DNA of 20,661 nt, taken from the IMG/VR virus record IMGVR_UViG_2872152978_000006, positions 1-20,661 of that record; one strand, 5' to 3'. Below, piece by piece: positions 1-16,349 of the stretch; position 1 is the stretch's first letter; each line of letters starts with the position of its first letter. Under the pieces are notes generated by a model. The model was given only the letters and a program-made list of their open reading frames with translations. It was not told where the DNA came from and searched no databases. The translations under genes and the position numbers were made by a program. This DNA is from a virus (taxonomy: Duplodnaviria > Heunggongvirae > Uroviricota > Caudoviricetes).

Positions 1-1203
1 GTGAAACTCAATGCCCGTCAAATAGACACAGCCAAGCCAAAAGAGAAGGCTTACAAGCTGGCCGATGGTGGCGGTTTGTATCTCTTGGTAAAACCTAATG
101 GAGGTAAATACTGGCGACTTAAATATCGTGTAGCTGGTAAAGAGAAGCTATTGGCACTAGGTGTGTATCCTGAGGTTACTCTAGCCGATGCTCGGGCAAA
201 ACGTGAAGATGCGAAAAGAGGTATCGCTGGTGGTATCGATCCGATGGAAGCGAAACGAGAGGAAAAGATTGCCCGGGAAACGCAGTTAAACAACACCTTC
301 AAAGATATTGCCCTTGAGTGGCACAGCAGCAAATTAAAAAAATGGTCTGCTGGTTATGCTTCAGACATCCTCGAAGCCTTCAACAAAGATGTGTTCCCTT
401 ACATTGGCAAAAAACCAATCGCCGAAATCAAACCACTTGAACTTCTGAATGTGCTGCGGCGCATCGAGGGGCGCGGTGCTACAGAAAAAGCCAAAAAAGT
501 GAGGCAGCGGTGCGGGGAAGTTTTCCGCTATGCAATAGTCACTGGTCGCGCAGAGTATAACCCTGCACCAGACCTTACTAGCGCGATGCAAGGCCATGAA
601 TCTAATCATTACCCTAAAGAATTACCTGATTTTTTCAAGGCATTGTCCAGTTACTCAGGAAGCGCATTGGTTGTTATGGCGGCTCGTCTACTGGTTATCA
701 CCGGCTTGCGGACTGGCGAACTACGTGGCGCATTATGGGATGAAATTGATTTCAACAAGGCTATCTGGGAGATACCCGCTTCACGTATGAAAATGCGGCG
801 GCCTCATATTGTGCCATTGTCTGATCAGGCTCTTTCGCTTATTGGGAAGATTAGAGAAATAACAGGCAATTACCCTCTTATGTTTCCCGGGCGCAATGAT
901 CCAAGGAAAACAATGAGTGAGGCCAGCATAAACCAAGTGTTTAAGCGCATTGGCTACGCTGGACGTGTAACTGGTCATGGGTTCCGGCACACTATGAGCA
1001 CGATTTTGCATGAGCAGGGCTATAACACCGCGTGGATAGAAACGCAGCTCGCTCACGTTGATAAGAACTCAATTCGTGGCACATACAACCATGCGCAATA
1101 TCTGGATGGAAGGCGGGAGATGCTTCAATGGTATGCCGACTATATGGATGCGCTGGAGAAGGAGGAGAACGTTGTTCATGGTTCGTTTGGGAAACGAGCT
1201 TAA
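1..1203 (+). CDS. P4/CP4-57-type tyrosine integrase (site-specific recombinase)
   Basis: 400-aa ORF with GTG start at window position 1; N-terminal motif KPKEKAYKLADGGGLYLLVKPNGGKYWRLKYR and C-terminal HGFRHT...HVDKN...RGTYNHAQY match the P4-type integrase family from memory. Start coincides with window edge, so a few N-terminal codons could lie upstream. Confidence 0.85.
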   Translation: MKLNARQIDTAKPKEKAYKLADGGGLYLLVKPNGGKYWRLKYRVAGKEKLLALGVYPEVTLADARAKREDAKRGIAGGIDPMEAKREEKIARETQLNNTFKDIALEWHSSKLKKWSAGYASDILEAFNKDVFPYIGKKPIAEIKPLELLNVLRRIEGRGATEKAKKVRQRCGEVFRYAIVTGRAEYNPAPDLTSAMQGHESNHYPKELPDFFKALSSYSGSALVVMAARLLVITGLRTGELRGALWDEIDFNKAIWEIPASRMKMRRPHIVPLSDQALSLIGKIREITGNYPLMFPGRNDPRKTMSEASINQVFKRIGYAGRVTGHGFRHTMSTILHEQGYNTAWIETQLAHVDKNSIRGTYNHAQYLDGRREMLQWYADYMDALEKEENVVHGSFGKRA

Positions 1204-1345
1204 CTGTATGAATAGACCGTGTTAAGCAATGGTAGTAGACTTATGTAGACGAACAAAGAATAGGCTATGTCTAGGCTGATCCCCGAAAACCCGTACACCC
1301 CTACGGGCTGGCATAGCCGTCAGAATTAGGGGCGCGGGGTGGCGT

Positions 1346-2227
1346 ATGGTGAGAGCCAAAAAACAAGATTTAGCATGGTTTGATATTAGTAATTATGAAT
1401 TTTTAAATGATTTAACCTTGCCGGACTTGATTCAAGAATTAGAGTGGCGCGATTTTTTATTGCGTCATGCAAAAGATGACACTGCTATATTCAAAGAAGA
1501 GTACGATATAAAATATGAAAGGATTTTTTCGGGCGATCCTAACCTAACCATTCTCAATGAAGAAGAGGAAGAGGTCGAAGAATTTATTCGCAAAGTAAAT
1601 GATGAAGCCCCATCATTAAGAAATGAGTACGATGATCTTCCCTCATTATCTTCAGCTATGGGGGTTAGTCCAGTAACATTTTCAGAGCTGGCCATGTACT
1701 CTTTCTCATCGATAGATCAAGGCTTTTTTAAAAGAGACGAAGAGGATTGCTACCTCAAGGCAAACGCTATGCTTGCGAGTGTTACTGGAAACCTAAGTAA
1801 TTGTTCCCCTAACATCATACTCGTTTCTATAGATTTAGATGACGCCACTGATGACGAAATTATTACCAGCCTGACTCACCTTCTACCTCTATGGCGAAAA
1901 GAGTTAAAAGTACCAGAGAGAGAGCATGTCGCTCAGAAAAGGATTGGATTAAAGACCCTTCAGAAGTTGATATCTAATAGAGTGATACCTATTGTTGATC
2001 TGCTGATTTGGGGTGAGAAGTCAGGTAAGGAAGTGAGCAATCCGATGATTTCTGCCTTGGTTTTTAGTGATGATCCGAAAGATACGCAGGCTATTAAGGA
2101 ATCAATAAAGCCTTTTGCACTTGAATCTATAAGCGAGAGATACACCCGCTTGCTTCAGCTTTATGTAAACAAAGACAGAGAAATGAGCTTGATAAAAATA
2201 TCTGATTTAATGAGTAGAGATTTATAG
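1346..2227 (+). CDS. hypothetical acidic protein, AT-rich cargo gene in the int-alpA slot
   Basis: 293-aa ORF, ATG start, visibly AT-rich relative to flanks, many D/E residues including an EEEEEVEE run; no family recognised. Confidence 0.55.
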   Translation: MVRAKKQDLAWFDISNYEFLNDLTLPDLIQELEWRDFLLRHAKDDTAIFKEEYDIKYERIFSGDPNLTILNEEEEEVEEFIRKVNDEAPSLRNEYDDLPSLSSAMGVSPVTFSELAMYSFSSIDQGFFKRDEEDCYLKANAMLASVTGNLSNCSPNIILVSIDLDDATDDEIITSLTHLLPLWRKELKVPEREHVAQKRIGLKTLQKLISNRVIPIVDLLIWGEKSGKEVSNPMISALVFSDDPKDTQAIKESIKPFALESISERYTRLLQLYVNKDREMSLIKISDLMSRDL

Positions 2228-2271
2228 CAAGCAAAATCCTACGTAAACGTTTTAAGTAAATTTCGCGATTT

Positions 2272-2306
2272 CCGCTTTGAATACGCTACTGTGTATTTCA
2301 AAGCGG
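2272..2306. promoter_or_regulatory. inverted repeat (10-bp arms CCGCTTTGAA / TTCAAAGCGG, 15-nt loop) upstream of alpA
   Basis: Perfect 10-bp arms read directly; lies between the orphan gene stop and alpA; no T-run directly after it, so function (terminator or operator) is uncertain. Confidence 0.3.
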
Positions 2307-2424
2307 ATAATCTTCTCAAAAAAATATTTTATTTTTATCCGCTATCACCCATTCACCGGTTTGTTTAATCTCCTTTCTGTCTACTGATGTCCATTAAAGA
2401 AGATGACAGAATATAGGAGTAAAC

Positions 2425-2622
2425 ATGTCTCAATCATTTATTCGTCTTTCTGAGGTTCAACGCCGTACTGGTTACAGCAAAGCGTGGATTTATCGGCTCA
2501 TCAAAGAACAGCGATTCCCTCAATCTGTAAAGATTGGAAGCCGATCAATTGCGTTTATTGAAAGTGAAATTGAAGAATGGATTAATCAGCGCATCGCTGA
2601 GTCGCGTGGCGAGGTAGCGTAA
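2425..2622 (+). CDS. alpA: AlpA-family phage transcriptional regulator / excisionase-like DNA-binding protein
   Basis: 65-aa ORF with AGGAG RBS; sequence FIRLSEVQRRTGYSKAWIYRLIKEQRFPQSVKIGSRSIAFIESEIEEWI fits the AlpA/Vis helix-turn-helix family. Confidence 0.85.
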   Translation: MSQSFIRLSEVQRRTGYSKAWIYRLIKEQRFPQSVKIGSRSIAFIESEIEEWINQRIAESRGEVA

Positions 2623-2964
2623 TGAATAAGAAAAACCGCCCATTACAGGCGGCTAATTCAGATATTCGCGTATCTGATGTTACGCCCCTTACAAAATCCC
2701 TTCAAGCACCAAAGCGCACACCGAAAAAGCATCGTGCCAGAGTCTATATGCTGCGTACTGGTATAGAGGGATGGACAGAAAATGACATTCTTCGCTACTG
2801 CCGTCTGTCTTCTGGTCGTAACTATGCAACAGAGTTAGAACGCCAGCTTGGAATCACTCTGGAACGTATCGACGAAAAGAATCCTGATGGTATCGGAACA
2901 CACCTTCGCTACCGTTTCTCCTGCCGTGGTGATGTTCTGAAAGTGATCACTCATGGATTTGCCC

Positions 2965-3870
2965 CTATATTTCCAGACATCTGTTATCACTTAACCCATT
3001 ACAAGCCCGCTGCCGCAGATATTCCCGTGGCGAGCGATAACCCAGCGCACTATGCGGATGCCATTCGTTATAATGCTCGAACGCCTCTGCAAGGTTCTTT
3101 GCTGCCGTTAACCCGTCTGGTTTGGGCATGATACTGATGTAGTCACGCTTTATCGTTTTCACGAAGCTCTCTGCTATTCCGTTACTCTCCGGACTCCGCA
3201 CCGCCGTGTTCTTCGGTTCAAGTCCCAACATCCGGGCGAACTGGCGTGTTTCATTAGCCCGGTAGCATGAACCATTATCCGTCAGCCACTCCACTGGAGA
3301 CGACGGAAGATCGTTGCCGAAGCGGCGTTCCACCGCTCCCAGCATGACGTCCTGTACTGTTTCACTGTTGAAGCCGCCGGTAGTCACCGCCCAGTGCAGT
3401 GCCTCACGATCACAGCAGTCCAGCGCGAACGTGACACGCAGTCTCTCTCCGTTATCACAGCAGAACTCGAACCCGTCAGAGCACCATCGCTGATTGCTTT
3501 CTTTCACGGCCACTCTGCCTGTATGTGCCCGTTTCGATGGTGGTACAGCAGGTTTTCGCTCAAGCAACAGCGCATTCTGGCGCATGATCCGGTAAACACG
3601 TTTGGCATTGATCGCAGGCATACCATCAAGTTCTGCCTGTCTGCGAAGCAGCGCCCATACCCGACGATAACCATACGTGGGCAGCTCTCCGATAACATGG
3701 TGTATACGGAGAAGCACATCCGTATCATCAGTGTGACGACTGCGGCGGCCATCCATCCAGTCATCGGTTCGTCTGAGAATGACGTGCAACTGCGCACGCG
3801 ACACCCGGAGACAACGGCTGACTAAGCTTACTCCCCATCCCCGGGCAATAAGGGCGCGTGCGCTATCCAC
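2965..3870 (-). CDS. insD: IS2 transposase OrfB (InsD)
   Basis: 301-aa ORF recognised as IS2 InsD (DDE integrase core, HSDRGSQY-type region). Confidence 0.9.
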
Positions 3871-4193
3871 TTTTTTGCCCGTCCATATTCAACGGCTTCT
3901 TTGAGGAGTTCATTTTCCATCGTTTTCTTGCCGAGCAGGCGCTGGAGTTCTTTAATCTGCTTCATGGCGGCAGCAAGTTCAGAGGCAGGAACAACCTGTT
4001 CTCCGGCGGCCACAGCAGTAAGACTTCCTTCCTGGTATTGCTTACGCCAGAGAAATAACTGGCTGGCTGCTACACCATGTTGCCGGGCAACGAGGGAGAC
4101 CGTCATCCCCGGTTCAAAGCTCTGCTGAACAATTGCGATCTTTTCCTGTGTGGTACGCCGTCTGCGTTTCTCCGGCCCTAAGACATCAATCAT
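3828..4193 (-). CDS. insC: IS2 OrfA (InsC), HTH protein
   Basis: Start placed at the internal Met of the 136-aa ORF ([25 protein letters not shown]...), giving the 121-aa InsC; overlaps insD start as expected for a frameshift-fusion IS3-family element. Confidence 0.85.
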
Positions 4194-4401
4194 CTGTACT
4201 CCAATGACTAGTCTAAAAACTAGTATTAAGACTATCACTTATTTAAGTGATACTGGTTGTCTGGAGATTCAGGGGGCCAGTCTAACTCATATTAACCATC
4301 TTGCGAACATAAATGATCACAACGGACTTTCTCAGCAGGAAATTGCCGACATTCTGAAACTCTACCCGGACGCGTTTAACGCCGCTTAACGGAGACTGAA
4401 A

Positions 4402-5235
4402 ATGAACATCGAAAAAAGCAGATTAATTTCTGAGGCCGCCCCTCATCTGAACGCCTCTCTGAGCACAATTAACGGTAATGAATTTGCCGCAATTGTCCCG
4501 GTTATTCCTGGTCATATCGGTGGGCGTGAAACCAATATTGTTAGCGCAAAAGCGTTACACAAAGCGTTGGGCGTGGGAAAAGACTTCTCTACATGGATCA
4601 CTGATCGCATCTCTGAATATGACTTCACCATTGGGCACGATTACTCAGTCCATAAAACAATTTCCCCAAATTTGGGGAAAAGCCCGAATGGCGCGGCTTA
4701 CAGCAAGATTAAGCAGTCTGGCAGACCCGGCAAAGACTATCTGTTAAGTGTCGGAATGGCGAAAGAACTGGCAATGATCGAACGCAATGATCAGGGTCAC
4801 GCTATCCGCCGTTATTTCATCCAGTGCGAGGAAGAATTACAGCGTAGCGTGCCTGAAATCGCCGCACGCTATCGTCGCCAGCTAAAAGCCCGTATCAGTG
4901 CCGCAAACAACTTTAAGCCAATGTGCGATGCGCTGAATATGGCCCGTGCCGAGATGGGGAAAACGACGCAGCAACACCACTACACAAACGAGAGCAATAT
5001 GATTTCTCGTATCGTTCTTGGTGGGCTAACTGCTAAGCAGTGGGCGCGGATAAATGGCTATTCTGGCGAACCTCGCGACCATATGAACGCAGAACAGCTT
5101 GAGCACCTCTCATATCTCGAAAGCACCAATATCACGTTAATTGATATGGGCATGGAATATGAGCAGCGCAAAGGAGAACTCACCCGCCTGTCGCAACGCT
5201 GGCTCGCCAAGCGTCTGGAGGCGCTCAATGTCTAA
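4402..5235 (+). CDS. phage antirepressor-like protein (AntA/Bro-N-type N-terminal domain)
   Basis: 277-aa ORF; region SAKALHKALGVGKDFSTWITDRISEYDFTIGHDY and GMAKELAMIERNDQGHAIRRYFIQCEEEL resemble AntA/antirepressor domains. Family call from memory. Confidence 0.55.
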   Translation: MNIEKSRLISEAAPHLNASLSTINGNEFAAIVPVIPGHIGGRETNIVSAKALHKALGVGKDFSTWITDRISEYDFTIGHDYSVHKTISPNLGKSPNGAAYSKIKQSGRPGKDYLLSVGMAKELAMIERNDQGHAIRRYFIQCEEELQRSVPEIAARYRRQLKARISAANNFKPMCDALNMARAEMGKTTQQHHYTNESNMISRIVLGGLTAKQWARINGYSGEPRDHMNAEQLEHLSYLESTNITLIDMGMEYEQRKGELTRLSQRWLAKRLEALNV

Positions 5236-5407
5236 GCCAACAGGAACACCACAACCACAAAAACGCTACAAAGATGCCCACGGAGCACTCGTTACTGTCG
5301 AAAGCGTGTCTCACAACCGAGTGACGTTTTATCGCGACGGGTATCAATCGCCATGCGTACAACCGCTGGCGCGTTTCATGAAGGAGTTCGCGGAGGTTAA
5401 CCAATGA
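5228..5407 (+). CDS. small hypothetical protein (59 aa)
   Basis: ATG at 5228 overlaps the upstream stop (AATGTCTAA) and its stop overlaps the next start (ATGA): translational coupling. Confidence 0.4.
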   Translation: MSKPTGTPQPQKRYKDAHGALVTVESVSHNRVTFYRDGYQSPCVQPLARFMKEFAEVNQ

Positions 5408-6065
5408 TACCCGTCCAGAAGAAGACATTTTCACTGGCTGGCATGTCGCCAAAATCCAGAAATATGACGGCAAAGTCAGGCATTAATACAGCAGATACAA
5501 GCAAAGTTTATCATTTGCTGGTGGTCGGAACGGATGCCTTAACCATACCAGAAATCTCGGGCGATGATATTAGCATTGAGAAGGTCAGCGGCTGCGCCAG
5601 AAAATTTCTGGTCGTAGATGATGTCTTCAGCTCGTGTAGTGACTCCACAAAAACATTCGTCCACGCGCGTGACGTTAACGAAATGAGCGCGATGTACTGT
5701 GCTTCTGGTTCTTCCAATAGTGAGTTTTCGGAGTCCATAAAAAAGAGCTTGCCGTTATGCGGCAACACGGTTTATGGTTATAAGGCACCTCATAAAACGG
5801 GTGCCGGGATTGGCGTCCTGGTAAATCGAATGGCGACATATGACGCGCCGAGCGTCTTTTTTTATGTCGTAGGTCTGACTCACCCATTTTTTGGGCGTTG
5901 GTGTATAATCCAGCGCCTTTGTCAATCAATGGTGGCTCAGGCAGGGGCTTCTTCGGAAGCGCCGGTATCCATTCGAGCCGGTTACGCCAACCCTGTCTGG
6001 GCTACCACCAGCGAAATTGGCGTTTCCGGTGGTAGCGTTACATGCTATCGAATGGAGGCTGCCAC
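5404..6065 (+). CDS. hypothetical protein; 3' extent uncertain (the open frame continues to 6471 but overlaps better-supported small genes in other frames)
   Basis: Start is coupled to the upstream gene by ATGA overlap; 355 stop-free codons are unlikely by chance, but the protein has no recognisable features. Confidence 0.25.
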
Positions 6066-6260
6066 ATGCTGGCTACTACCCCTACCCAAAAACCGCAATT
6101 TATCTGGATTATCGCCGCAGTTCGCCGCGATTGCCCGACAATTACCGCCAAAATTCATCATATTGCTGCCGAGTCTGAACGCGATGCTCGCCGTTATCTG
6201 GTGCGCGATCACATCTGCTTTTTTGCTGGTCGTATCCGCATGGAGGTGGCACATGATTAA
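6066..6260 (+). CDS. Icd-like small protein (host cell division inhibitor family of P4-like elements)
   Basis: 64-aa ORF with GGAGG RBS 7 nt upstream; motif QFIWIIAAVRR...AAESERDARRYL...FAGRI resembles Icd-like proteins. From memory. Confidence 0.45.
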   Translation: MLATTPTQKPQFIWIIAAVRRDCPTITAKIHHIAAESERDARRYLVRDHICFFAGRIRMEVAHD

Positions 6261-6471
6261 AACCTACGATGTGCATATGGATCCCCTCGAACGCACAAGC
6301 CAGATCATCACACTGACAGAAGTGATTAACGACATTCTGGTGAGCAACTCTCCCTCACGAGACGAAAGACTGAAGGCGTTACTCGCGATATTGGATCTCG
6401 CCGTTCGTGACGTTCATTTCCTGCTGGAAGGTGGCGAAATGCCAGGAAAAACGGGGGCAACCAATGAATAA
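6253..6471 (+). CDS. small hypothetical protein (72 aa)
   Basis: ATG with GGAGG RBS; start overlaps the Icd-like stop; stop overlaps the next start. Confidence 0.4.
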   Translation: MIKTYDVHMDPLERTSQIITLTEVINDILVSNSPSRDERLKALLAILDLAVRDVHFLLEGGEMPGKTGATNE

Positions 6472-6658
6472 CTCAATTAATACCCCTCGCCTTACGTCCG
6501 CACTTCAATTAATCGAGCAAGCAGCGGCTGTCCTGGTTGCTGTCAGTCTTTCGGCTGAAGAAATGGACGCTACTGATGTCGTGGATGCGATTAAAGCGTG
6601 CTCATCTTTGGTTAACGATGCCCGTGCCGAGCTGGTAATTCTTGGGGGTGAAAAATGA
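6464..6658 (+). CDS. small hypothetical protein (64 aa)
   Basis: ATG at 6464 inside the longer track ORF 6407-6658; overlapping start/stop with neighbours. Confidence 0.4.
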   Translation: MNNSINTPRLTSALQLIEQAAAVLVAVSLSAEEMDATDVVDAIKACSSLVNDARAELVILGGEK

Positions 6659-6918
6659 ATATCAACTTAATTTATCGTCATCCGTGTGAGCTGGAAATTG
6701 AATCATTGCTGGGGCGTGAAGAGCCATATCCAGACACATTCACTCCCGCAGATTGCGCGACTGAACGGCTTACCAGAGCGCGCACAGGTCTGGTTCATGT
6801 GATGAATGAGATTGTTCCCTCGGTGGGAGGGGAACAGGCGACAGTAATCAATAGCTGGCTACAAAAAGTTACCTCCCTGATAGATATCGGTTTAATCGAT
6901 GTGGAGAGTGCGAAATGA
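6655..6918 (+). CDS. small hypothetical protein (87 aa)
   Basis: ATGA overlap with upstream gene; part of the coupled small-gene chain. Confidence 0.45.
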   Translation: MNINLIYRHPCELEIESLLGREEPYPDTFTPADCATERLTRARTGLVHVMNEIVPSVGGEQATVINSWLQKVTSLIDIGLIDVESAK

Positions 6919-7070
6919 CCAACATCCAGCTCATTGAAGCGCAATGTCGCATCGAACAGGTTCAGACTGTTTTAGGGTTCTGGCTTGAAGGGGCCAGCCC
7001 CAGCAACAGAGACAAGTTAATGATTGGCGCGGTTATGTCACTGCTCAATGGCGTACCAGAAGCTATTTAG
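6915..7070 (+). CDS. small hypothetical protein (51 aa)
   Basis: ATGA overlap with upstream stop; below the ORF-track length cutoff; translated by eye as MTNIQLIEAQCRIEQVQTVLGFWLEGASPSNRDKLMIGAVMSLLNGVPEAI. Confidence 0.35.
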   Translation: MTNIQLIEAQCRIEQVQTVLGFWLEGASPSNRDKLMIGAVMSLLNGVPEAI

Positions 7071-7108
7071 GAAGCGGACGAATTGTTGGGCAAATATGAG
7101 TTACAGAA

Positions 7109-8427
<1,319 letters not shown>

Positions 8428-8947
8428 GAACCAGACGTTCGCTCCTACAGCACCAAATCAGGTCTGGGTGGCGGACCTGACGTATGTTGCCACACAGGAG
8501 GGATGGTTGTACCTCGCTGGCATCAAAGATGTTTATACGTGCGAAATTGTCGGCTACGCCATGGGAGAGCGCATGACAAAAGAGCTGACAGGTAAAGCCC
8601 TGTTTATGGCGCTCAGGAGCCAGCGCCCACCTGCCGGGCTAATCCACCACTCTGATCGAGGTTCACAGTACTGCGCATACGATTACCGGGTCATACAGGA
8701 GCAGTCTGGTCTGAAAACATCAATGTCGCGTAAAGGTAACTGTTACGACAACGCTCCGATGGAAAGCTTCTGGGGAACGCTGAAAAATGAGAGCCTGAGC
8801 CACTATCGTTTTAATAACCGGGATGAAGCCATCTCAGTAATACGGGAATACATTGAGATTTTCTACAATCGTCAGCGTCGTCACTCTCGTCTGGGGAATA
8901 TCTCCCCGGCAGCCTTCAGGGAAAAATATCATCAGATGGCTGCTTAA
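8428..8947 (+). pseudogene. C-terminal fragment of a different IS3-family transposase OrfB (IS600-like?)
   Basis: Open frame begins at the IS911 junction with no N-terminal portion; contains DDE-region motifs HSDRGSQY and SRKGNCYDNAPMESFWGTLKNE; precise IS identity not recognised. Confidence 0.75.
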
Positions 8948-8958
8948 AAAAAGAACAA

Positions 8959-9462
8959 ATGGTAGTGTCCGCTATTGCCAGTACACCTCACCGGGTGGCA
9001 TGGATAAACCCGGAAGAGAGTAAATCAAACCGCGCAATTGGCGTTGCGCTGAATGATACTGCATGTCGCGTATTGAAAAAACAAATCGGGAATCATCACC
9101 GTTGGGTATTTGTGTATAAGGAAAGCTGTACCAAACCAGACGGAACGAAAGCGCCAACAGTCAGGAAGATGCGGTATGACGCAAACACAGCCTGGAAAGC
9201 GGCGCTGAGACGAGCAGGTATTGATGATTTCAGATTTCACGACTTGAGACACACCTGGGCAAGTTGGCTGGTTCAAGCCGGAGTCCCGTTATCAGTGTTA
9301 CAGGAAATGGGAGGCTGGGAGTCTATCGAAATGGTTCGTCGATATGCTCACCTCGCACCTAATCACCTTACCGAACACGCACGGCAAATAGACTCGATTC
9401 TGAACCCATCGGTCCCAAATTTGTCCCAGTCAAGAAATAAGGAACGTACTAATGATGTGTAA
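8959..9462 (+). pseudogene. C-terminal fragment (about 155 aa) of a tyrosine integrase
   Basis: Contains the catalytic HxxR box ([11 protein letters not shown]) and Tyr region ([12 protein letters not shown]) but not the N-terminal domains or first catalytic Arg; begins right after the IS3-family remnant. Integrase homology starts near 8990. Confidence 0.7.
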
Positions 9463-9690
9463 CTTATTGATTTAAATGGGATAATAGGAACAATACACAT
9501 AGGCGATAAGCTTTGTTTTTGTTGCCTTTTTTATTGTTCATTTTTTATAGATACCCCCAAAAGTACCCCCATATCTTTTTCCGCCCCTGAAATTTGGTTG
9601 TTATTCATACACCATATCAGGCGGTAACGCTCTCCCTTTAACCCACTTATTGTATGATAGTGCTATCCCACAATAAGGAATCAGCCAGCC

Positions 9691-10050
9691 ATGAGAATGA
9701 CCAGTCGCAAAAAAGAGATACTTAGCTACTTTGAACCGGATAACCTCGAATGGGTGACTGGTGAGATTGGTGCGCCGCCGTTCGATGTGTCGGGTGTGGC
9801 CTACCTGCTTCATGGCATGGTGTCGTTCGATAAGCGTCACCAGCTCGAATCAACCCGGCGCACACTGGAAAGCATGGTTGCTGGTGGACTGCTTGAGCGG
9901 GTGACAGTGTATGAATCGCGCCAGATACGGCGCGGCGGTGATACTAACGCAACGGTCGTGCGCTACGGTTTACCCGGTCAGTGCGCTGTTATGCGCGATA
10001 CTGGCGGCGCTGACAACGCAATATCAGGTGAATACATGCGGGTCAGTTAA
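9691..10050 (+). CDS. hypothetical protein (119 aa)
   Basis: ATG with AAGGA RBS; no family recognised; 3' end overlaps the convergent gene by 8 bp. Confidence 0.45.
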   Translation: MRMTSRKKEILSYFEPDNLEWVTGEIGAPPFDVSGVAYLLHGMVSFDKRHQLESTRRTLESMVAGGLLERVTVYESRQIRRGGDTNATVVRYGLPGQCAVMRDTGGADNAISGEYMRVS

Positions 10051-10585
10051 TAGCCTGCAATCTGTCGTTGATGCGGCTCAGGTCGTAAACCCGGCGTTCA
10101 ATATCCAGCATCAGGAAATTGTGGATCTCGGCCTGCTCAGGATTATCAGACTCTCTGGCCTGTAATAGCAATTCATTGTAACCATGCAAGCCGCCTGAGT
10201 TTTCCGCCGGGGTGGTGCCTTTCCCACGCAGGCAGCTAATGGGCTGATTACTCGTATCGTGTGTTTTCTTCTCCAGCACAATGACGCAATCCCACCAGTC
10301 GCCAAAGTCATACGTGTAAACCAGCTTGTCACCCTCATTCTGGAGCGCCGCCCATAGTGGCGTGATTGCCGCGTTACCCATGCTTTCATCCTCACCCCAT
10401 ACGCGATACTCGCTACCTGGATCACCTTTACGCCCTTTCTCGAACATATACAGGTGTTCGTCATTCCAGCCAAAAGCTAACTGGATCACGGCATGAAGTT
10501 TACTAAAGGGGATTTGCTCTGGAACCAGCACACGCCGCCATATAGGTGGTTTGCTGTCTCGGATGGTTATCTTTAGCTGGTACAT
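10043..10585 (-). CDS. plasmid pRiA4b ORF3-like family protein (function unknown)
   Basis: 180-aa ORF; N-terminal YQLKITIRDSKPPIWRRVLVPEQIPFSKLHAVIQLAFGWNDEHLYMF matches the pRiA4b ORF-3 signature. Confidence 0.75.
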   Translation of the reverse strand: MYQLKITIRDSKPPIWRRVLVPEQIPFSKLHAVIQLAFGWNDEHLYMFEKGRKGDPGSEYRVWGEDESMGNAAITPLWAALQNEGDKLVYTYDFGDWWDCVIVLEKKTHDTSNQPISCLRGKGTTPAENSGGLHGYNELLLQARESDNPEQAEIHNFLMLDIERRVYDLSRINDRLQAIN

Positions 10586-10705
10586 GCAAATCCTGAATAA
10601 ATGCGAATCGGAAGGATAACGATACTGACGTACTCACAATTCTGTAAAGGTGAATAAAGGAAATTTGCTTAATACGCATAAGTTACATGTGGAATAATCC
10701 CATAT

Positions 10706-10891
10706 CTACCTGCGCGGCGCTGGCTTCTTCCACTGGTAGGCAGGTGCTCGCATCATTTCGCGGAACCTGTCGCGCCGGGCTATATCGGCATTAACTGATC
10801 GTTCTATCTCCCGTTGATCTGCCTGTGTAAGCTGGTGGCCTCCGTGCTCAAGTTTGGCGATGGTCAATAAGGCTATTTCGCGTGGTGTCAT
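10706..10891 (-). CDS. small hypothetical protein (61 aa)
   Basis: Good SD (AGAGGA) 8 nt upstream of the ATG on the minus strand; no family recognised. Confidence 0.4.
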   Translation of the reverse strand: MTPREIALLTIAKLEHGGHQLTQADQREIERSVNADIARRDRFREMMRAPAYQWKKPAPRR

Positions 10892-11162
10892 ACGTCATAT
10901 CCTCTGGAAGGATGAAACACGCCCGGATTAAATTTCATTTTTCGCGGGTATAAAAAAACGATGGGGCGGGCAGTCCCGGATAGTCAGGGCTGTAGAGATT
11001 TGACTACCCCCTCCCCACTGTATTCAGGTTACTGCTATTCCGTTAAGCGCTGCTTACGGGGATAGCTGCGTTGTGATTTTGACCATTCAGGTCGCCGCTA
11101 TTTCCTCACCGATTGGGTGCTACGCGCGCGCGTACTTGTCCCGAAATACCAGAAACCGCCAG

Positions 11163-11184
11163 CCAGAGGATGATTTCCCTCTGG
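11163..11184 (-). terminator. hairpin (CCAGAGG - 8 nt - CCTCTGG) just downstream of the minus-strand PerC gene
   Basis: 7-bp perfect stem 5 bp beyond the PerC stop; T-run is weak, so terminator function is tentative. Confidence 0.3.
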
Positions 11185-11188
11185 TGGT

Positions 11189-11470
11189 CTACCTTTGCCT
11201 CTTGCCGCCATTTAACCGGAAGGCGTTACCGTTCGGTTGCGCTATCCCCATGCGGTGTTGCGTTTCGGTAACAGCTTTATGCAGGTCGCCAAATTCCTCA
11301 ACCTTCACGGGCGGGCGCTTCACGTTCTCCAGACACGTTTCACGGCGGCGCTTTATCCATTCCCGATCATCGTCCTCGGAGCATAACAGCATGACTTCCA
11401 TCCATCGTGCGGCAGCTCTCCGGTATAGCCCTTTTGACTCCAGCTCTTCAGCTTTCCTGTCCCTTATCAT
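11189..11470 (-). CDS. PerC-family transcriptional regulator
   Basis: 93-aa ORF with ELESKGLYRRAAARWMEVM, characteristic of PerC/Pch-like prophage regulators; GAGG RBS. Confidence 0.7.
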   Translation of the reverse strand: MIRDRKAEELESKGLYRRAAARWMEVMLLCSEDDDREWIKRRRETCLENVKRPPVKVEEFGDLHKAVTETQHRMGIAQPNGNAFRLNGGKRQR

Positions 11471-11505
11471 TTCTGCCTCTCAGATTATATAGATAAGCAA
11501 AAAGG

Positions 11506-11620
11506 TGTTGGTTCAGTTGGTTTAATTTGTAAAGATCGTTGTTTTTATTATGTTTTTTTCTAAAATATTGAACCAACATCAACTCATTTTGAACCAACAC
11601 AGCCCAGCTCTGAACCAACA
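11506..11620. repeat. iteron array: TGAACCAACA direct repeats at 11569, 11590, 11611 (exact 21-bp phasing) plus one inverted copy at 11506-11515
   Basis: Read directly from sequence; sits in the divergent intergenic region between PerC (minus) and the RHH gene (plus). Confidence 0.7.
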
Positions 11621-11685
11621 ACACAGCGATAGCTTTGTGATTGGTCCGTTATTTTCTGGCTGATATTTGAGCGTATAACAGTGTT

Positions 11686-11704
11686 ATACAGTGGTATACT
11701 GTAT
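11686..11704. promoter_or_regulatory. 7-bp inverted repeat ATACAGT - 5 bp - ACTGTAT (candidate operator) about 30 bp upstream of the RHH gene start
   Basis: Arms at 11686-11692 and 11698-11704 are exact reverse complements. Confidence 0.35.
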
Positions 11705-11733
11705 GGATATTACTCACTGATATGGTCTTTGCA

Positions 11734-12177
11734 ATGAGCAAATCTAATCTGATCGCGTTCCGCATCCCATCTTAATTGCAGGATGAGTTTAATCGGTCTG
11801 TTCTCGCTTCTGGAGGGGATAAAACCTCCTGGCTTGTTGATGCGATTCGCATGAAGCTGGGACAGCCGGAAAAGTCTATTGATTCACGAATGCTTGGGCT
11901 GGTGGAGCGCATGGAAAAAGCCGCTGCGTCGCTTATTGCCGGAAAGCCGAACATCCCACCAAAGCCATATAACGAAACGGCAGTTATAAAGATCATTGCC
12001 GATACCATCCAACAGGGATTTGATAATGGGCGTGTGATAGCTGAACGGATCAATGAAGCAGGCTATCAAACAAAAGCTGGTAAAGCGTGGGATAAAGATA
12101 TTTACAGCGCGTGGAAGCGTCAGGGAAGCAATGCTGAAAATTTAAAAGCGGTGATTGATTGTAAGGTCAGCGTATAA
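11734..12177 (+). pseudogene. ribbon-helix-helix (Arc/MetJ/CopG-like) DNA-binding protein with an in-frame TAA after codon 13
   Basis: ATG 11734 encodes MSKSNLIAFRIPS, then TAA at 11773-11775, then the same frame continues LQDEFNRSVLASGGDKTSWLVDAIRMKLG..., the helix-turn-helix part of an RHH fold. The ORF track places a TTG restart at 11776. Confidence 0.5.
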
Positions 12178-12289
12178 ACATGAGTGCCCATTGGAAAGTA
12201 AGCGTACAGCCTGAACCGTCTGGTCAGAATCTGACGAATTAGACAAAGTGGTGTCCACCAAATAAGTAGTGGGAACCAAAGTGTCAGAT

Positions 12290-12670
12290 ATGCAGAAAAA
12301 TGTGAATCCCGGCAGGCGAAAAGGCTGCCCTAATTATCCTCCCGAATTTAAACAGCAGCTCGTTGCTGCCTCCTGTGAACCCGGGATATCCATCTCAAAA
12401 CTTGCTCTTGAAAATGGCATTAACGCCAATCTGTTGTTCAAATGGCGACAACAATGGCGCGAGGGAAAGCTGCTATTACCTTCTTCAGAGAGCCTCCAGC
12501 TACTTCCTGTGACTCTCGATGCAGCTGCCGAACAGCCAGAATCGCTCGCAGAGGATCCGGAAACCCTCAGTATCAGCTGTGAGGTAACGTTCCGGCACGG
12601 GACGCTCCGCTTCAATGGCAATGTCAGCGAAAAGCTCCTGACTCTGCTGATACAGGAACTGAAGCGATGA
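12290..12670 (+). CDS. IS66-family TnpA (orf1)
   Basis: Family-typical small HTH protein; ATG at 12290 preferred, alternative GTG at 12269 from the ORF track. Confidence 0.75.
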   Translation: MQKNVNPGRRKGCPNYPPEFKQQLVAASCEPGISISKLALENGINANLLFKWRQQWREGKLLLPSSESLQLLPVTLDAAAEQPESLAEDPETLSISCEVTFRHGTLRFNGNVSEKLLTLLIQELKR

Positions 12671-13014
12671 TCCCGTTACCTTCCGGGACCAAAATTTGGC
12701 TGGTTGCCGGTATCACCGATATGAGAAATGGCTTCAACGGCCTGGCGGCAAAGGTGCAGACGACGCTGAAAGACGATCCGATGTCAGGTCACGTTTTTAT
12801 CTTCCGTGGGCGTAATGGCAGTCAGGTAAAGCTCCTCTGGTCTACCGGCGATGGACTGTGTCTGCTGACCAAACGGCTGGAGCGCGGCCGCTTCGCCTGG
12901 CCGTCAGCCCGGGATGGCAAAGTGTTCCTCACACCGGCACAGCTGGCGATGCTCCTTGAAGGTATCGACTGGCGGCAGCCTAAAAGACTGCTTACGTCCC
13001 TGACTATGTTGTAA
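12667..13014 (+). CDS. IS66-family TnpB (orf2)
   Basis: 115-aa ORF coupled to tnpA by ATGA overlap; motif LVAGITDMRNGFNGLAAKV. Confidence 0.85.
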   Translation: MIPLPSGTKIWLVAGITDMRNGFNGLAAKVQTTLKDDPMSGHVFIFRGRNGSQVKLLWSTGDGLCLLTKRLERGRFAWPSARDGKVFLTPAQLAMLLEGIDWRQPKRLLTSLTML

Positions 13015-13062
13015 GCCTCTTTATCCTGGTCGACGCTGAATGAGCCTGGTAATATACCCGGT

Positions 13063-14601
13063 ATGAGCAGCTCACTTCCTGACGATATCAATGCACTGAA
13101 ACGTCTCCTTGCCGAACAGGAGGCGCTGAACCGTGCCCTGCTGGAAAAGCTGAACGAGCGTGAACGCGAAATAGACCATCTGCAGGCACAGCTGGATAAG
13201 CTGCGCCGGATGAACTTCGGCAGCCGCTCCGAAAAAGTCTCCCGTCGTATCGCACAGATGGAAGCTGACCTGAAGGCACTTCAGAAAGAAAGTGATACCC
13301 TTACCGGTCGGGTTGACGACCCGGCCGTGCAGCGCCCGCTGCGTCAAACCCGCACCCGCAAACCGTTCCCCGAATCACTCCCCCGCGATGAAAAACGGCT
13401 GCTGCCGGCAGCGTCATGCTGCCCGGAATGTGGAGGCTCACTGAGCTATCCGGGTGAGGATGCCGCCGAACAGCTGGAGTTGATGCGCAGCGTCTTCCGG
13501 GTTATCCGGACTGTACGTGAAAAGCATGCCTGTACTCAGTGCGATGCCATCGTGCAGGCCCCCGCGCCTTCACGGCCCATCGAGCGGGGTATCGCAGGAC
13601 CGGGGCTGCTGGCCCGCGTGCTGATCTCAAAGTATGCAGAGCACACCCCGCTGTACCGCCAGTCTGAAATGTACGGCCGCCAGGGCGTGGAGCTGAGTCG
13701 TTCACTGCTGTCGGGCTGGGTGGATGCATGCTGCCGGCTACTGTCACCGCTGGAAGAAGCGCTTCAGGACTATGTGCTGACTGACGGTAAGCTCCATGCT
13801 GATGACACGCCTGTCCCGGTGCTGTTGCCAGGCAATAAGAAAACGAAGACCGGGCGGTTATGGACCTACGTTCGTGACGACCGTAACGCCGGGTCAACGC
13901 TGGCGCCGGCGGTGTGGTTCGCTTACAGCCCGGACAGAAAAGGCATCCATCCGCAGACCCATCTTGCGGGGTTCAGTGGTGTACTGCAGGCGGATGCATA
14001 CGCCGGGTTCAACGAGCTGTACCGGGATGGCCGGATAACGGAAGCCGCCTGTTGGGCTCACGCCCGCCGTAAAATCCACGATGTGCACGTTCGCACCCCG
14101 TCAGCCCTGACGGAGGAAGCGCTGAAACGGATCGGCGAACTGTACGCCATCGAGGCAGAGATAAGGGGAATGACGGCGGAGCAGCGCCTTGCCGAACGTC
14201 AGTTGAAAACGAAACCGCTGCTGAAATCCCTGGAAAGCTGGCTGCGTGAAAAGATGAAAACCCTGTCGCGACACTCAGAACTGGCGAAAGCGTTCGCATA
14301 CGCCCTGAACCAGTGGCCGGCGCTGACGTACTATGCAGATGATGGCTGGGCTGAGGCGGACAATAACATCGCTGAAAATGCGTTGCGGATGGTCAGTCTG
14401 GGCCGCAAAAACTACCTGTTCTTCGGTTCGGATCATGGAGGAGAGCGGGGAGCGCTGCTGTACAGCCTGATCGGGACGTGCAAACTGAACGGAGTGGAGC
14501 CAGAAAGCTACCTCCGCTATGTCCTTGACGTCATAGCCGACTGGCCGATAAACCGGGTCGGCGAACTGCTCCCCTGGCGCGTAGCACTGCCGACTGAATA
14601 A
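13063..14601 (+). CDS. IS66-family transposase TnpC (orf3)
   Basis: 512-aa ORF with N-terminal leucine-zipper region, CxxC zinc-finger-like motifs (CCPECGG, CTQCD) and a DDE-type core. Confidence 0.9.
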
Positions 14602-14623
14602 CACATCCCCGTCAATACGGTTC

Positions 14624-15205
14624 TTGCTGCACGCTTACAAAAAAGCGGGTTTTCACCCGTCAGAATCTGGCGGGGATCCGTCAGTAAAATCAAAACATGA
14701 TCCGTCAGATAAAAAACCTTCTCGTCCGGACGCTTCGCAACCGGACACGCAGACGGCTGAACAGGATTTTTTAACTCGCCATCCTGATGCGGTTGTATTC
14801 AGCCCTAAAAAGCGCCAGTGGGGGACGCAGGATGATTTGACCTGCGCACAGTGGCTCTGGAAAAAAATCATCGCCCTGTACGAGCAGGCTGCCGAATGTG
14901 ACGGCGAGGTGGTTCGTCCCAAAGAACCGAACTGGACAGCCTGGGCAAACGAAATTCGCCTGATGTGTGTACAGGATGGCCGTACACACAAACAAATCTG
15001 CGAGATGTACAGCCGCGTCAGCCGCGATCCGTTCTGGTGCCGTAACGTGCTCAGCCCGTCGAAGTTGCGGGAAAAATGGGATGAGCTTTCCCTGCGCTTA
15101 TCGCCGTCCGTCAGCACGCACACAGAAAAACGTGAAGACCCGTACTTCAAAGCCAGTTACGACAACGTGGACTACAGCCAGATCCCGGCAGGATTCAGGG
15201 GGTGA
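14624..15205 (+). CDS. DnaT-like phage replication protein (primosomal DnaT C-terminal domain); 5' end abuts or is interrupted by the IS66 element
   Basis: C-terminus ...SYDNVDYSQIPAGFRG parallels the E. coli DnaT C-terminal end (...SQIPPGFRG, from memory); the ORF-track start is a TTG inside the IS terminal repeat, so the native start is probably lost or upstream of the insertion. Confidence 0.6.
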   Translation: MLHAYKKAGFHPSESGGDPSVKSKHDPSDKKPSRPDASQPDTQTAEQDFLTRHPDAVVFSPKKRQWGTQDDLTCAQWLWKKIIALYEQAAECDGEVVRPKEPNWTAWANEIRLMCVQDGRTHKQICEMYSRVSRDPFWCRNVLSPSKLREKWDELSLRLSPSVSTHTEKREDPYFKASYDNVDYSQIPAGFRG

Positions 15206-15207
15206 GC

Positions 15208-15696
15208 ATGAGTCTTTTGAATGACGTTCAGAAATTCATTGAAGCCCATCCGGGGTGTACTTCCGGAGACATTGCGGATGCTTTTGCAGGTTACTCACGG
15301 CAGCGCGTTCTGCAGTCTGCAAGCAAGTTACGTCAGAGTGGGCGTGTGGCTCACCGTTGTGAAGGAGATACACGCAGACATTTCCCGCGCCTGACTGAGA
15401 GAGCGCAGGAACCGGGACCACAATCAGTTCGAGAAACCAGACCTGTGCGCAATTTCTATGTCGGCACTAACGATCCCCGGGTGATTTTGTGCCTGACCCG
15501 CCAGGCTGAAGAACTGGAGTCCAGGGGCTTATACCGTCGTGCTGCAACGGTGTGGATGGCGGCATTCCGTGAAAGCCACTCCCAGCCAGAACGAAACAAT
15601 TTTCTGGCGCGTCGTGAGCGGTGCTTACGGAAAAGCAGCAAGCGCGCTGTATCGGGTGATGAGTGGTATCTGTCAGGGAATTACGTGGGGGCTTAA
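15208..15696 (+). CDS. PerC-family regulator with N-terminal winged-helix-like extension
   Basis: Contains AEELESRGLYRRAATVWMAAF, paralogous to the motif in 11189-11470; ATG 15208 preferred (GGGGG RBS) over the overlapping GTG at 15202. Confidence 0.65.
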   Translation: MSLLNDVQKFIEAHPGCTSGDIADAFAGYSRQRVLQSASKLRQSGRVAHRCEGDTRRHFPRLTERAQEPGPQSVRETRPVRNFYVGTNDPRVILCLTRQAEELESRGLYRRAATVWMAAFRESHSQPERNNFLARRERCLRKSSKRAVSGDEWYLSGNYVGA

Positions 15697-16349
15697 TGAG
15701 TAATAAATATTGCCAGGCGCTGGTGGAGTTGCGAAACAAACCAGCCCATGAACTGAAGGAAGTGGGCGATCAGTGGCGCACACCGGACAACATTTTCTGG
15801 GGAATTAACACCCTGTTTGGCCCGTTTGTTCTGGAGCTGTTTACTGACGGTGATAACGCCAAATGTGCCGCGTATTACACGGCGGAAGACAACGCGCTGG
15901 CGCATGACTGGTCAGAACGTCTTGCGGAGCTTAAAGGTGCTGCCTTTGGAAATCCTCCATACAGCCGCGCCAGTCAGCATGAGGGGCAATACATCACCGG
16001 CATGCGTTACATCATGAAACATGCCAGTGCCATGCGTGATAAGGGCGGGCGCTATGTTTTCCTGATCAAAGCTGCCACCAGCGAAGTGTGGTGGCCGGAA
16101 GATGCGGATCATATTGCTTTTATTCGCGGGCGTATTGGTTTTGAACTGCCTGCCTGGTTTATCCCGAAAGACGAGAAGCAGGTGCCAACCGGTGCTTTCT
16201 TCGCTGGTGCTATTGCCGTTTTCGACAAGACCTGGAAGGGACCGGCAATCAGCTACATCGGGCGCGATGAACTTGAGGCATGTGGTGAGGCCTTTCTGGC
16301 GCAAGTTCGCCAGCAGGCAGAAAAACTTGTCAGGGAGATGGCGGCATGA
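15696..16349 (+). CDS. phage DNA N6-adenine methyltransferase (Dam-like)
   Basis: ATG overlaps upstream stop (TAATG); catalytic NPPY motif (FGNPPYS) and overall similarity to phage Dam methylases. Confidence 0.75.
   Translation: MSNKYCQALVELRNKPAHELKEVGDQWRTPDNIFWGINTLFGPFVLELFTDGDNAKCAAYYTAEDNALAHDWSERLAELKGAAFGNPPYSRASQHEGQYITGMRYIMKHASAMRDKGGRYVFLIKAATSEVWWPEDADHIAFIRGRIGFELPAWFIPKDEKQVPTGAFFAGAIAVFDKTWKGPAISYIGRDELEACGEAFLAQVRQQAEKLVREMAA

Follow-up and report, generated by a model that had tools for sequence, protein, structure and literature searches.

In this study, we show that positions 14639-15205 of the window (the whole stretch of DNA analysed, 20,661 nucleotides of a Caudoviricetes record from IMG/VR) carry the 3′ 60% of a gene for a lambda-O-family replication initiator of the SfII gp41 / CPS-53 yfdO type, which was truncated by an IS66-family element and fused to an unrelated island. 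For the fuller reading, in which identity and mechanism are taken together and an IS-truncated lambda-O-type initiator would in its intact form dock DnaC through a C-terminal tail ending in GFRG, we estimate a probability of about 55%. The window copy itself is a dead pseudogene in a decayed, IS-riddled prophage and, as a dead copy of a gene common to thousands of E. coli and Shigella prophages, its sequence carries little weight in itself. The weight lies with the SfII-type family, in which a lambda-O-type initiator works without a phage loader in functional phages and bears the terminal peptide of DnaT.

An initiator gene truncated by an insertion sequence

The open reading frame at 14624-15205 (plus strand) encodes 193 amino acids from a TTG start and ends in ...DNVDYSQIPAGFRG (in a longer readout, ...KASYDNVDYSQIPAGFRG), with YSQIPAGFRG as its final residues. 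Directly upstream, at 12198-14638 on the plus strand, lies the ISEc22-like insertion sequence that truncates the initiator gene. Its terminal inverted repeats at 12198-12219 and 14617-14638 (GTAAGCG.../...CGCTTAC; 22 nt, 86% complementary), together with three plus-strand reading frames, tnpA (12269-12670), tnpB (12667-13014) and tnpC (13063-14601), place it in the IS66 family. These frames match the Pfam models HTH_Tnp_1, TnpB_IS66 (1.6e-38) and DDE_Tnp_IS66 (7e-107), and the right end of the element matches ISEc22-family copies at 98-99%. Because this element is directly upstream and its right repeat spans 14617-14638, the TTG and the first five codons fall inside that repeat; the 5′ extension at 14624-14638 (plus strand; TTG plus four codons) is spurious and is not phage DNA. 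The earlier note had described 14624-15205 as a phage gene, which does not hold within those limits: the beginning is the IS right inverted repeat and the rest is codons 126-313 of a 942-bp gene.

No 8-bp target duplication accompanies the element (left flank ATTGGAAA, right flank AAAAAAGC). On the left, the flanking stretch 9459-12198 shows 99% identity to an island adjoining paoBCD in ETEC H10407, and the right-hand junction was found in no complete E. coli genome. The absence of a target duplication and the different origin of the two flanks rule out a simple IS insertion. Since the flanks derive from two different loci and the 8-bp flanks are unequal, the insertion was followed by a deletion, fusion or recombination, mediated by the IS.

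Homology to the intact gene begins at 14638/14639, window position 14638 corresponding to position 6000 of L002. The intact homologue is a 942-bp gene for a protein of 313 amino acids, of which the window retains the 3′ 567 bp (14639-15205, plus strand; codons 126-313 and the stop). Over this length the pseudogene shares 98.6-98.8% nucleotide identity with the genes of SfII, SfIV, Kati and SKA5, and 99.8% with a 942-bp prophage gene of E. coli L3452210II. A match to the gene is present in 3,314 of the 5,426 complete E. coli genomes, mostly adjoining yfdN (the CPS-53/KpLE1 yfdO locus), and 2,050 E. coli genomes, as well as phages, contain intact 942-bp genes with 98-99.8% identity. The 5′ 375 bp (the N-terminal 125 codons, including the HTH_36 domain) are absent from the whole window. 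It is the loss of the winged-helix DNA-binding domain and of most origin iterons that makes this copy a pseudogene. The prophage replication module that the earlier note envisaged cannot work in this window, with the DNA-binding domain gone from the initiator and the iteron array cut. The gene is already annotated in the SfII, SfIV, Kati and SKA5 genomes, as 'replication protein O', 'O protein family' or 'primosomal protein'.

The window copy and SfII gp41, its SfIV counterpart and CPS-53 (KpLE1) yfdO are thus the same gene, at 98-99.8% nucleotide identity over the 567 bp kept, and the downstream yfdN-like, LexA-like, RusA, KilA-N, DUF968 and Q genes are common to the window and the SfII / yfdO locus. 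In contrast to that locus, neither codons 1-125 nor the cI-cro-cII region upstream of them is present in the window, a loss due to the IS66-family junction. A Dam methylase gene is present in the window and in SfII, and not in the closest E. coli prophage.

A lambda-O-family protein with repeats inside its gene

The fragment matches PHROG 391, 'replication initiation O-like', at E 1.5e-83, and a tblastn comparison with phage genomes aligned its residues 1-110 with lambda O at about residues 173-270 (39% identity, E 5e-19). As its core and the C-terminal region of lambda O are homologous, the initiator is a member of the lambda-O family rather than an alternative to lambda O, and the window copy is a pseudogene member because codons 1-125 and most of the repeats are missing. 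The COOH-terminal region of lambda O is its P-binding part, and its last five residues are essential (PMC6022878). Relatives of the core number 2,694 at E<=1e-3 among 1.84 billion representatives. Among 121 representatives scanned, the core is joined to N-terminal domains of several kinds (HTH_36 in 20, Phage_rep_O in 13, DUF1376 in 12 and DnaD_N in 8). No Pfam or NCBIfam model matches the C-terminal core, in either the fragment or the intact homologue.

The intact protein resembles lambda O in its overall plan. Both genes occupy the same early-right operon position after cII and contain origin iterons, and both proteins consist of an N-terminal DNA-binding domain, a low-complexity linker, the homologous C-terminal region and a short C-terminal tail after the core. 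They differ in the N-terminal domain, which is an HTH_36 winged helix (PF13730) at residues 23-70 of the intact SfII-type protein (E 4e-11) and Phage_rep_O (PF04492) in lambda O; in the tail, which reads ...IPAGFRG in the former and ...NTDWIYGVDL in the latter; and in the genes that follow, there being no P gene after the SfII-type initiator. The window copy differs further in being truncated.

Residues ~100-165 of the intact protein form a linker rich in Ser, Asp, Lys and Pro that is encoded by the iteron array. In the intact gene, this linker DNA contains five or six 15-bp direct repeats (TCAAAATCTGACCCG-like) and three CCGTCAG repeats (array at L002 5914-6075, 15-bp spacing), which are origin iterons placed inside the gene as in lambda. 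All of the five or six upstream 15-bp repeats have been deleted from the window and the last three repeats are kept, as an unstranded remnant at 14653-14713 with three CCGTCAG(A/T)A-type repeats (14659-14672, 14675-14689 and 14699-14713).

Beyond the linker lies a globular helical core, residues ~168-280 of the intact protein and 14765-15097 (plus strand) in the window, homologous to the P-binding C-terminal region of lambda O. In an AF2 model of the window fragment, residues 21-110 are all-helical with pLDDT of 85-94. The remaining ~35 residues (fragment 112-146; 15098-15202, plus strand; LSPSVSTHTEKREDPYFKASYDNVDYSQIPAGFRG) are predicted to be disordered (pLDDT 44-56), and the last 10 of them (15173-15202) are the DnaT-type motif. 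A phmmer search of PDB sequences returned only MarR-type matches, to the winged helix, and did not find DnaT.

Resemblance to DnaT is confined to the tail

That the C-terminus parallels the end of DnaT was the central observation of the earlier note, and it is partly confirmed. When the fragment was compared by BLASTP with E. coli K-12 DnaT (sequence checked against NC_000913), only SQIPAGFRG and SQIPPGFRG were aligned, with 8 of 9 residues identical and a pairwise E of 0.009. Taken alone this match is borderline; given the conservation of the C-terminus, the longer matches of relatives and the hits of a pattern scan described below, it is not a product of chance. In homologues that have otherwise diverged, the motif still forms the very C-terminus. 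In a profile comparison with hhalign, the family profile matched the DnaT profile significantly in the tail only (E 4.3e-5 over 33 columns), the DnaT profile being a shallow one (Neff 1.9) because its search gave the best 120 homologues only, all >70% identical.

In relatives of the window protein the likeness extends further. The tail QRCVNHISEPDTEIPPGFRG is identical to DnaT 160-179 at 14 of 20 positions (E about 1e-7); this tail and GQRDVNAISEPDNTIPEGFRG align with DnaT at 61-70% identity over 20-28 columns (E 5.6e-8 to 2.7e-7), and the P0245 protein does so over 43 columns (E 1e-8). An HMM of the DnaT C-terminal domain matched the family only at HMM positions 68-96 (DnaT 151-179), and close relatives of the window protein only at its last 10 positions.

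The folded part of DnaT is another matter. PF17948, which describes its three-helix ssDNA-binding domain, matched neither the fragment nor the intact homologue even at permissive thresholds, and none of the 121 family representatives (0/121); DnaT itself, as a positive control, matched at 3.7e-21. Foldseek returned no structural neighbours at E <= 0.001, and BLASTP of DnaT 1-88 revealed no similarity between the DnaT N-terminal domain and the initiator. The likeness to DnaT is, on the evidence of these sequence comparisons, limited to a disordered tail of ~10 residues in the window copy and up to ~30 in relatives. The 'DnaT-like C-terminal domain' of the earlier note has accordingly to be given up, PF17948 having no match and the DnaT HMM matching the tail only. 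The earlier note had staked its claim on an alignment reaching past the terminal residues, and for the window sequence none is significant.

DnaT (primosomal protein i; PDB 4OU6, 2RU8, 9ZBT) and the phage initiator share the C-terminus SQIP[AP]GFRG, and the tail is flexible or disordered in DnaT (PMC5778457) as it is predicted to be in the initiator. They also share a gene order: a dnaC homologue comes after the tailed gene in Rac and in related phages, just as dnaC comes after dnaT. Unlike DnaT, the initiator has no PF17948 three-helix domain, and it carries a winged helix in place of the N-terminal oligomerisation and PriB-binding domain and acidic linker; it would act at a sequence-specific origin (iterons), whereas DnaT acts at forks. 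A further comparison is offered by DopC/DopE (Brezellec et al. 2017, PMC5509034), where an O-like HTH_36 N-terminal domain is again combined with a DnaT-derived C-terminal element. DopC, however, is reported to have the DnaT C-terminal domain (HHpred to 2RU8) and no lambda O C-terminal domain, the reverse of the present initiator with its DnaT tail only, and it is paired with the P-like DopE (PMC5509034). The name 'primosomal protein (I)' assigned by annotation pipelines indicates that the DnaT resemblance has been registered automatically.

A portable C-terminal peptide

Among close homologues of the initiator, the linker before the tail varies and the end is kept, with variants such as ...YSQIP[ATS]GFRG, ...CDTRIPEGFRG and ...LPENSGFR[ST]; some Pantoea members have a wholly different tail. 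A scan of viral contigs with a degenerate DNA pattern for IPxGFRG followed by TGA, which covers enders with that stop codon, gave at least 115 matches, of which ~100 end open reading frames of 260-410 aa. Phage initiators from at least 12 clusters with different cores, among them the lambda-O core, DUF1376-type initiators and two further types, terminate in the peptide [IV]PxGFRG-COOH; one such tail peptide is NVDYSQIPAGFRG.

In one of these clusters, represented by Stx2a_1447 and 1720a-02, an unrelated core of the FFGPDRxFE type is followed by a C-terminus whose last 33 residues are 81.8% identical to those of the window protein, and the last 76 nt of the window gene are 98.7% identical to these phages. 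A single phage protein, L158, has an authentic DnaT C-terminal domain along with a GFRG tail. Rac YdaU of E. coli K-12 ends in the GFRG-type sequence ...QVNTVSLPDSAIPPGFRG, and IPxGFRG is kept in 107 of 107 DnaT orthologues examined. The tail is thus a real, portable module that is common to initiators, Rac YdaU and DnaT.

The resemblance among tails is also clear in Rac YdaU-YdaV, the Gifsy-2 gpO-homologue with its DnaC-like partner, and gp15-gp16 of 75/02 Stx, all with the form ...[VI]N.[VI]S.PD..IP.GFRG. Their cores are of the DUF1376 or FFGPxxxFE type, unlike that of the window protein. They also differ from SfII and yfdO in what lies immediately downstream, which is a DnaC orthologue of their own (47-51% to E. 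coli DnaC) in these elements and no such gene in SfII/yfdO.

Tail type and helicase loader

In the window, the position of lambda P is occupied by a yfdN-like PerC-family gene at 15202-15696 (plus strand; Pfam PerC E 1.9e-9; annotated yfdN in E. coli), whose start overlaps the end of the initiator gene and which is not a helicase loader. With DnaC and lambda P as tblastn queries, neither the whole window nor the whole SfII genome gave a match at E<=1. The complete SfII genome, which has an integrase and cI/cro/cII-like genes, lacks helicase, loader and primase alike. We also considered the PerC-like YfdN as a hidden loader and rejected it, as it is absent from most GFRG lineages.

Initiators of the lambda-O family fall into several recurrent tail classes. 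Tails of the form NTDW[IA]xG[VL] are followed by a lambda-P-type loader in all six cases (lambda, Mulock, EhrS_59, GF-2, SEN34 and mEp237), as are two other tails, those of Pm34 and phiARM81mr. A different tail, KDYGQT[ED][MI]P[SA]WA (KDYGQTEMPSWAQE), precedes a distant DnaC/IstB-like loader (31-35%, with a different N-terminus) in N7, mEpX1 and yong1. A P gene comes after the initiator in 0 of 18 lineages with GFRG tails and in 8 of 14 with other tails (Fisher p = 3e-4), in a sample that is small, non-random and partly chosen by DnaC similarity, and whose lineages are not phylogenetically independent.

The GFRG lineages are of two kinds. No loader was found, in the whole genome for SfII and in 3-4 kb downstream for the others, in SfII, the E. 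coli prophage, HannyBb, Stx2a_1447/1720a-02, P0080, P0256, P0267, P0280 and P0298. Elsewhere the tailed gene is followed by a full-length DnaC orthologue, with a DnaC-type N-terminus and 47-53% identity to E. coli DnaC; these cases are the P0245 contig, L109, L127, L175 and L208, 75/02 Stx, Gifsy-2 and Klebsiella phi18.2, and Rac YdaU-YdaV. The host dnaT and dnaC genes are themselves adjacent.

When the pairing was approached from the loader, 75 of 80 viral DnaC-like loci had an upstream reading frame ending in IPPGFRG, these loci being closely related among themselves (83-100% identity to the query, a phage DnaC orthologue from L175 and the first sequence of alignment A4). When loci were sought with a diverse alignment, every copy recovered was at least 98% identical, which made the set unusable for neighbourhood statistics. 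One exception to the pairing is Vibrio 2.095.A, in which a DnaC-like ATPase follows a non-GFRG tail (...PPEGWNQ). Mosaic recombination could move tail and downstream genes together.

A proposed loader-docking tail and its alternatives

The correlation of this tail with DnaC-type loaders across phages, in Rac and at the host dnaT-dnaC locus is what leads us to read it as a loader-docking tag, which may address DnaC, whether encoded by the phage or by the host. That lambda O cannot do without its last five residues (PMC6022878) is consistent with such a reading. In the intact initiator, the N-terminal winged helix would bind the 15-bp iterons of the gene that encodes it, the complex would be organised by the helical domain that has its homologue in the C-terminal region of lambda O, and the flexible tail ending in [IV]PxGFRG-COOH, the same peptide as in DnaT and Rac YdaU, would dock a DnaC-type loader (as DnaB6-DnaC6). 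Because phages such as SfII encode no loader, their tail would bring the host's DnaC-DnaB straight to the origin, in place of the lambda O tail and lambda P. The DnaT resemblance would then reflect a shared docking peptide and not a shared domain.

This bears on the interpretation in the earlier note, which is partly supported. It had proposed that the phage recruits or mimics host restart-primosome components in place of a lambda O/P pair. As the tail is that of DnaT and the lineage has no lambda-P-type partner gene, in the window or in the SfII genome, mimicry is a reasonable idea; the protein, however, is itself of the lambda-O family, and only P is missing. As for the host restart primosome as the target, the tail really is a DnaT tail, but the comparative data suggest the DnaC loader as the partner rather than PriB or PriC.

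A reading closer to that note has the tail mimic DnaT and dock PriA (or PriB); the phage origin would then be handled like an abandoned fork, with DnaB loaded by the PriA-PriB-DnaT machinery. In DnaT the C-terminal domain contacts PriA HD2/CTD via a conserved hydrophobic interface and the linker binds PriB (PMC13377028), the phage tail has a hydrophobic IPxGF core, and phages without a loader need some host entry point. Yet the contact described is made by the folded three-helix domain that the phage protein lacks; no phage has PriA or PriB adjoining these genes, while many have a DnaC orthologue right after the GFRG-tailed gene, and the type of tail tracks the type of loader and not the core. 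We regard PriA docking as unlikely. Slightly less likely again, in our judgement, is a tail that serves as a nucleic-acid or self-association element, promoting cooperative ssDNA binding or oligomerisation without addressing any particular protein. Removal of residues 154-179 weakens ssDNA binding by DnaT ~2.7-fold (for dT30, Kd 27 µM for DnaT 84-153 versus 9.9 µM for DnaT 84-179, with lower cooperativity; PMC4132743), so the tail could act on DNA, and DnaT 1-161 forms a dimer, for which the model has the third subunit of the trimer join via C-terminal-domain contacts (PMC5778457). Such a role would leave unexplained both the pairing of tail and loader (never P-type, with close DnaC orthologues instead) and the grafting of the tail onto at least four unrelated cores, and a short motif with a single Arg and acidic residues before it would be unusual for a DNA-binding tail.

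Two further explanations concern the origin of the likeness. The whole C-terminal half might be a very divergent DnaT C-terminal domain, the lambda O region and the DnaT three-helix bundle being distant homologues. A greedy hhalign run does give a topologically sensible alignment of fragment 53-146 and DnaT 88-179 (E 0.0095), the P0245 alignment begins as early as DnaT helix 3 (KWDDLILRL in P0245), and in DopC a DnaT_C domain joined to HTH_36 was detected by HHpred (PMC5509034). The hhalign probability, however, is only 4.3%, and the PF17948 result for the family representatives and the restriction of the DnaT C-terminal-domain HMM to tails make common descent of the domain improbable. Alternatively, the likeness might have no functional meaning, the last 76-100 nt belonging to a downstream yfdN/nin mosaic module and the reading frame being a pseudogene fragment, as annotated. 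The near-identity of these last 76 nt in Stx2 phages with otherwise different O genes and the same downstream genes fits such hitch-hiking, and the window copy is certainly non-functional. We nonetheless consider it very improbable, since the motif is kept at the protein level only, across several genera and lineages that differ in their downstream genes, is retained in chromosomal DnaT, and has its pattern matches concentrated at the ends of replication-initiator reading frames.

Returning to the loader-docking reading, the tail classes described above could amount to an 'address code' in which NTDW directs the initiator to lambda P, KDYGQTEMPSWAQE to the distant DnaC/IstB-like loader and [IV]PxGFRG to true DnaC. 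We advance this tentatively, as somewhat more doubtful than not. The flexible 20-residue tail of DnaT, to which no role is otherwise assigned, would, under such a code, be the missing contact by which PriA-PriB-DnaT recruits DnaB6-DnaC6, and dnaT-dnaC would be a domesticated phage pair like Rac ydaU-ydaV. A 2026 cryo-EM study of the preprimosome proposed the DnaT N-terminal domain, and not the tail, as a possible DnaB/DnaC recruiter (PMC13377028), and according to a 2024 paper contacts of DnaC with PriA, PriB or DnaT had yet to be demonstrated (PMC11087952). The papers searched included none linking the YfdO, YdaU or SfII gp41 tails with DnaT or DnaC, and neither a functional lambda-O-type initiator variant without P nor a tail-loader code appears to have been described before. 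For the hand-over from the restart preprimosome to DnaB-DnaC, the pairing with DnaC-type loaders makes the GFRG peptide, at 10-20 residues, a defined candidate.

Prophage and phage counterparts of the dnaT–dnaC pair

The C-terminal peptide of host DnaT (the GFRG tail) is shared by phage initiators and Rac YdaU. In the Rac prophage of E. coli K-12 (ydaU–ydaV, L311 1620-3230), YdaU, a DUF1376 protein, ends in QVNTVSLPDSAIPPGFRG; over its final 17 residues (VNTVSLPDSAIPPGFRG) it is identical to the C-terminus of DnaT at 15 positions. The next gene encodes YdaV, which shares 50% identity with DnaC across its full length; ydaU–ydaV is a prophage copy of the dnaT–dnaC arrangement. In a phage protein from IMG/VR UViG_2597490225_000006 (L158 1888-2716), an authentic DnaT C-terminal domain and tail are joined to another N-terminus, which resembles DUF1376; a RuvC-like gene comes next. 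Recurrent tails of at least three further kinds (DLDFDNTDW..G.., HWNS.EAWEN.. and KDYGQTEMPSWAQE) also occur on the same lambda-O-like core, as seen in rows P0064, P0075 and P0077 (Pantoea) of the family protein alignment A1 together with family representatives; the tail of lambda O itself is of the NTDW type.

In loader-bearing lineages, a DnaC orthologue precedes the DUF1627 gene; in loader-less lineages, the GFRG-tailed initiator is followed by the DUF1627 gene directly or past one small ORF. This pattern, found at L097 5733-6449, L300 2267-3037, L098 4453-5109, L099 4491-5156 and L100 1474-2217, makes it look as though the phage dnaC gene was lost in the loader-less lineages.

Mosaicism and decay of the window

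The IS66-family element (12198-14638) joins two unrelated loci, because its left flank is a pao-adjacent island with 99% identity to ETEC H10407 and its right flank is the prophage O-like gene. No 8-bp target duplication was found flanking the element when window positions 12190-12197 and 14639-14646 were compared, and its right-hand junction occurs in 0 of 5,426 complete E. coli genomes. A 147-codon ORF (11734-12177, plus strand), intact in ETEC H10407, is interrupted at codon 14 by a nonsense change (GAA to TAA, position 11773), a further sign of decay of the region.

Positions 1-9460 and 19804-20307 are a mosaic of mobile-element debris, including a P4-type integrase (1-1203), DUF6387, AntA and Ash-family genes, IS3-family transposase fragments (7109-8026, minus strand; 8402-8947, plus strand), a truncated integrase (8959-9462) and an IS1 transposase (19804-20307, minus strand). 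The presence or absence of the Dam-type methyltransferase gene (15663-16349) marks a mosaic indel. The gene is common to the window and phages SfII and Stx2a_1447; L002, otherwise the closest E. coli prophage, lacks it, and there yfdN directly adjoins the LexA-like gene.

Three copies of GAACCAAC with 21-bp spacing (11570, 11591 and 11612) lie in the A+T-rich intergenic region between the ORF with the nonsense change and a divergent PerC-family gene (11189-11470, minus strand). Unrelated to the O-gene iterons, these repeats may be operator sites, or the 'iterons' meant in the earlier note.
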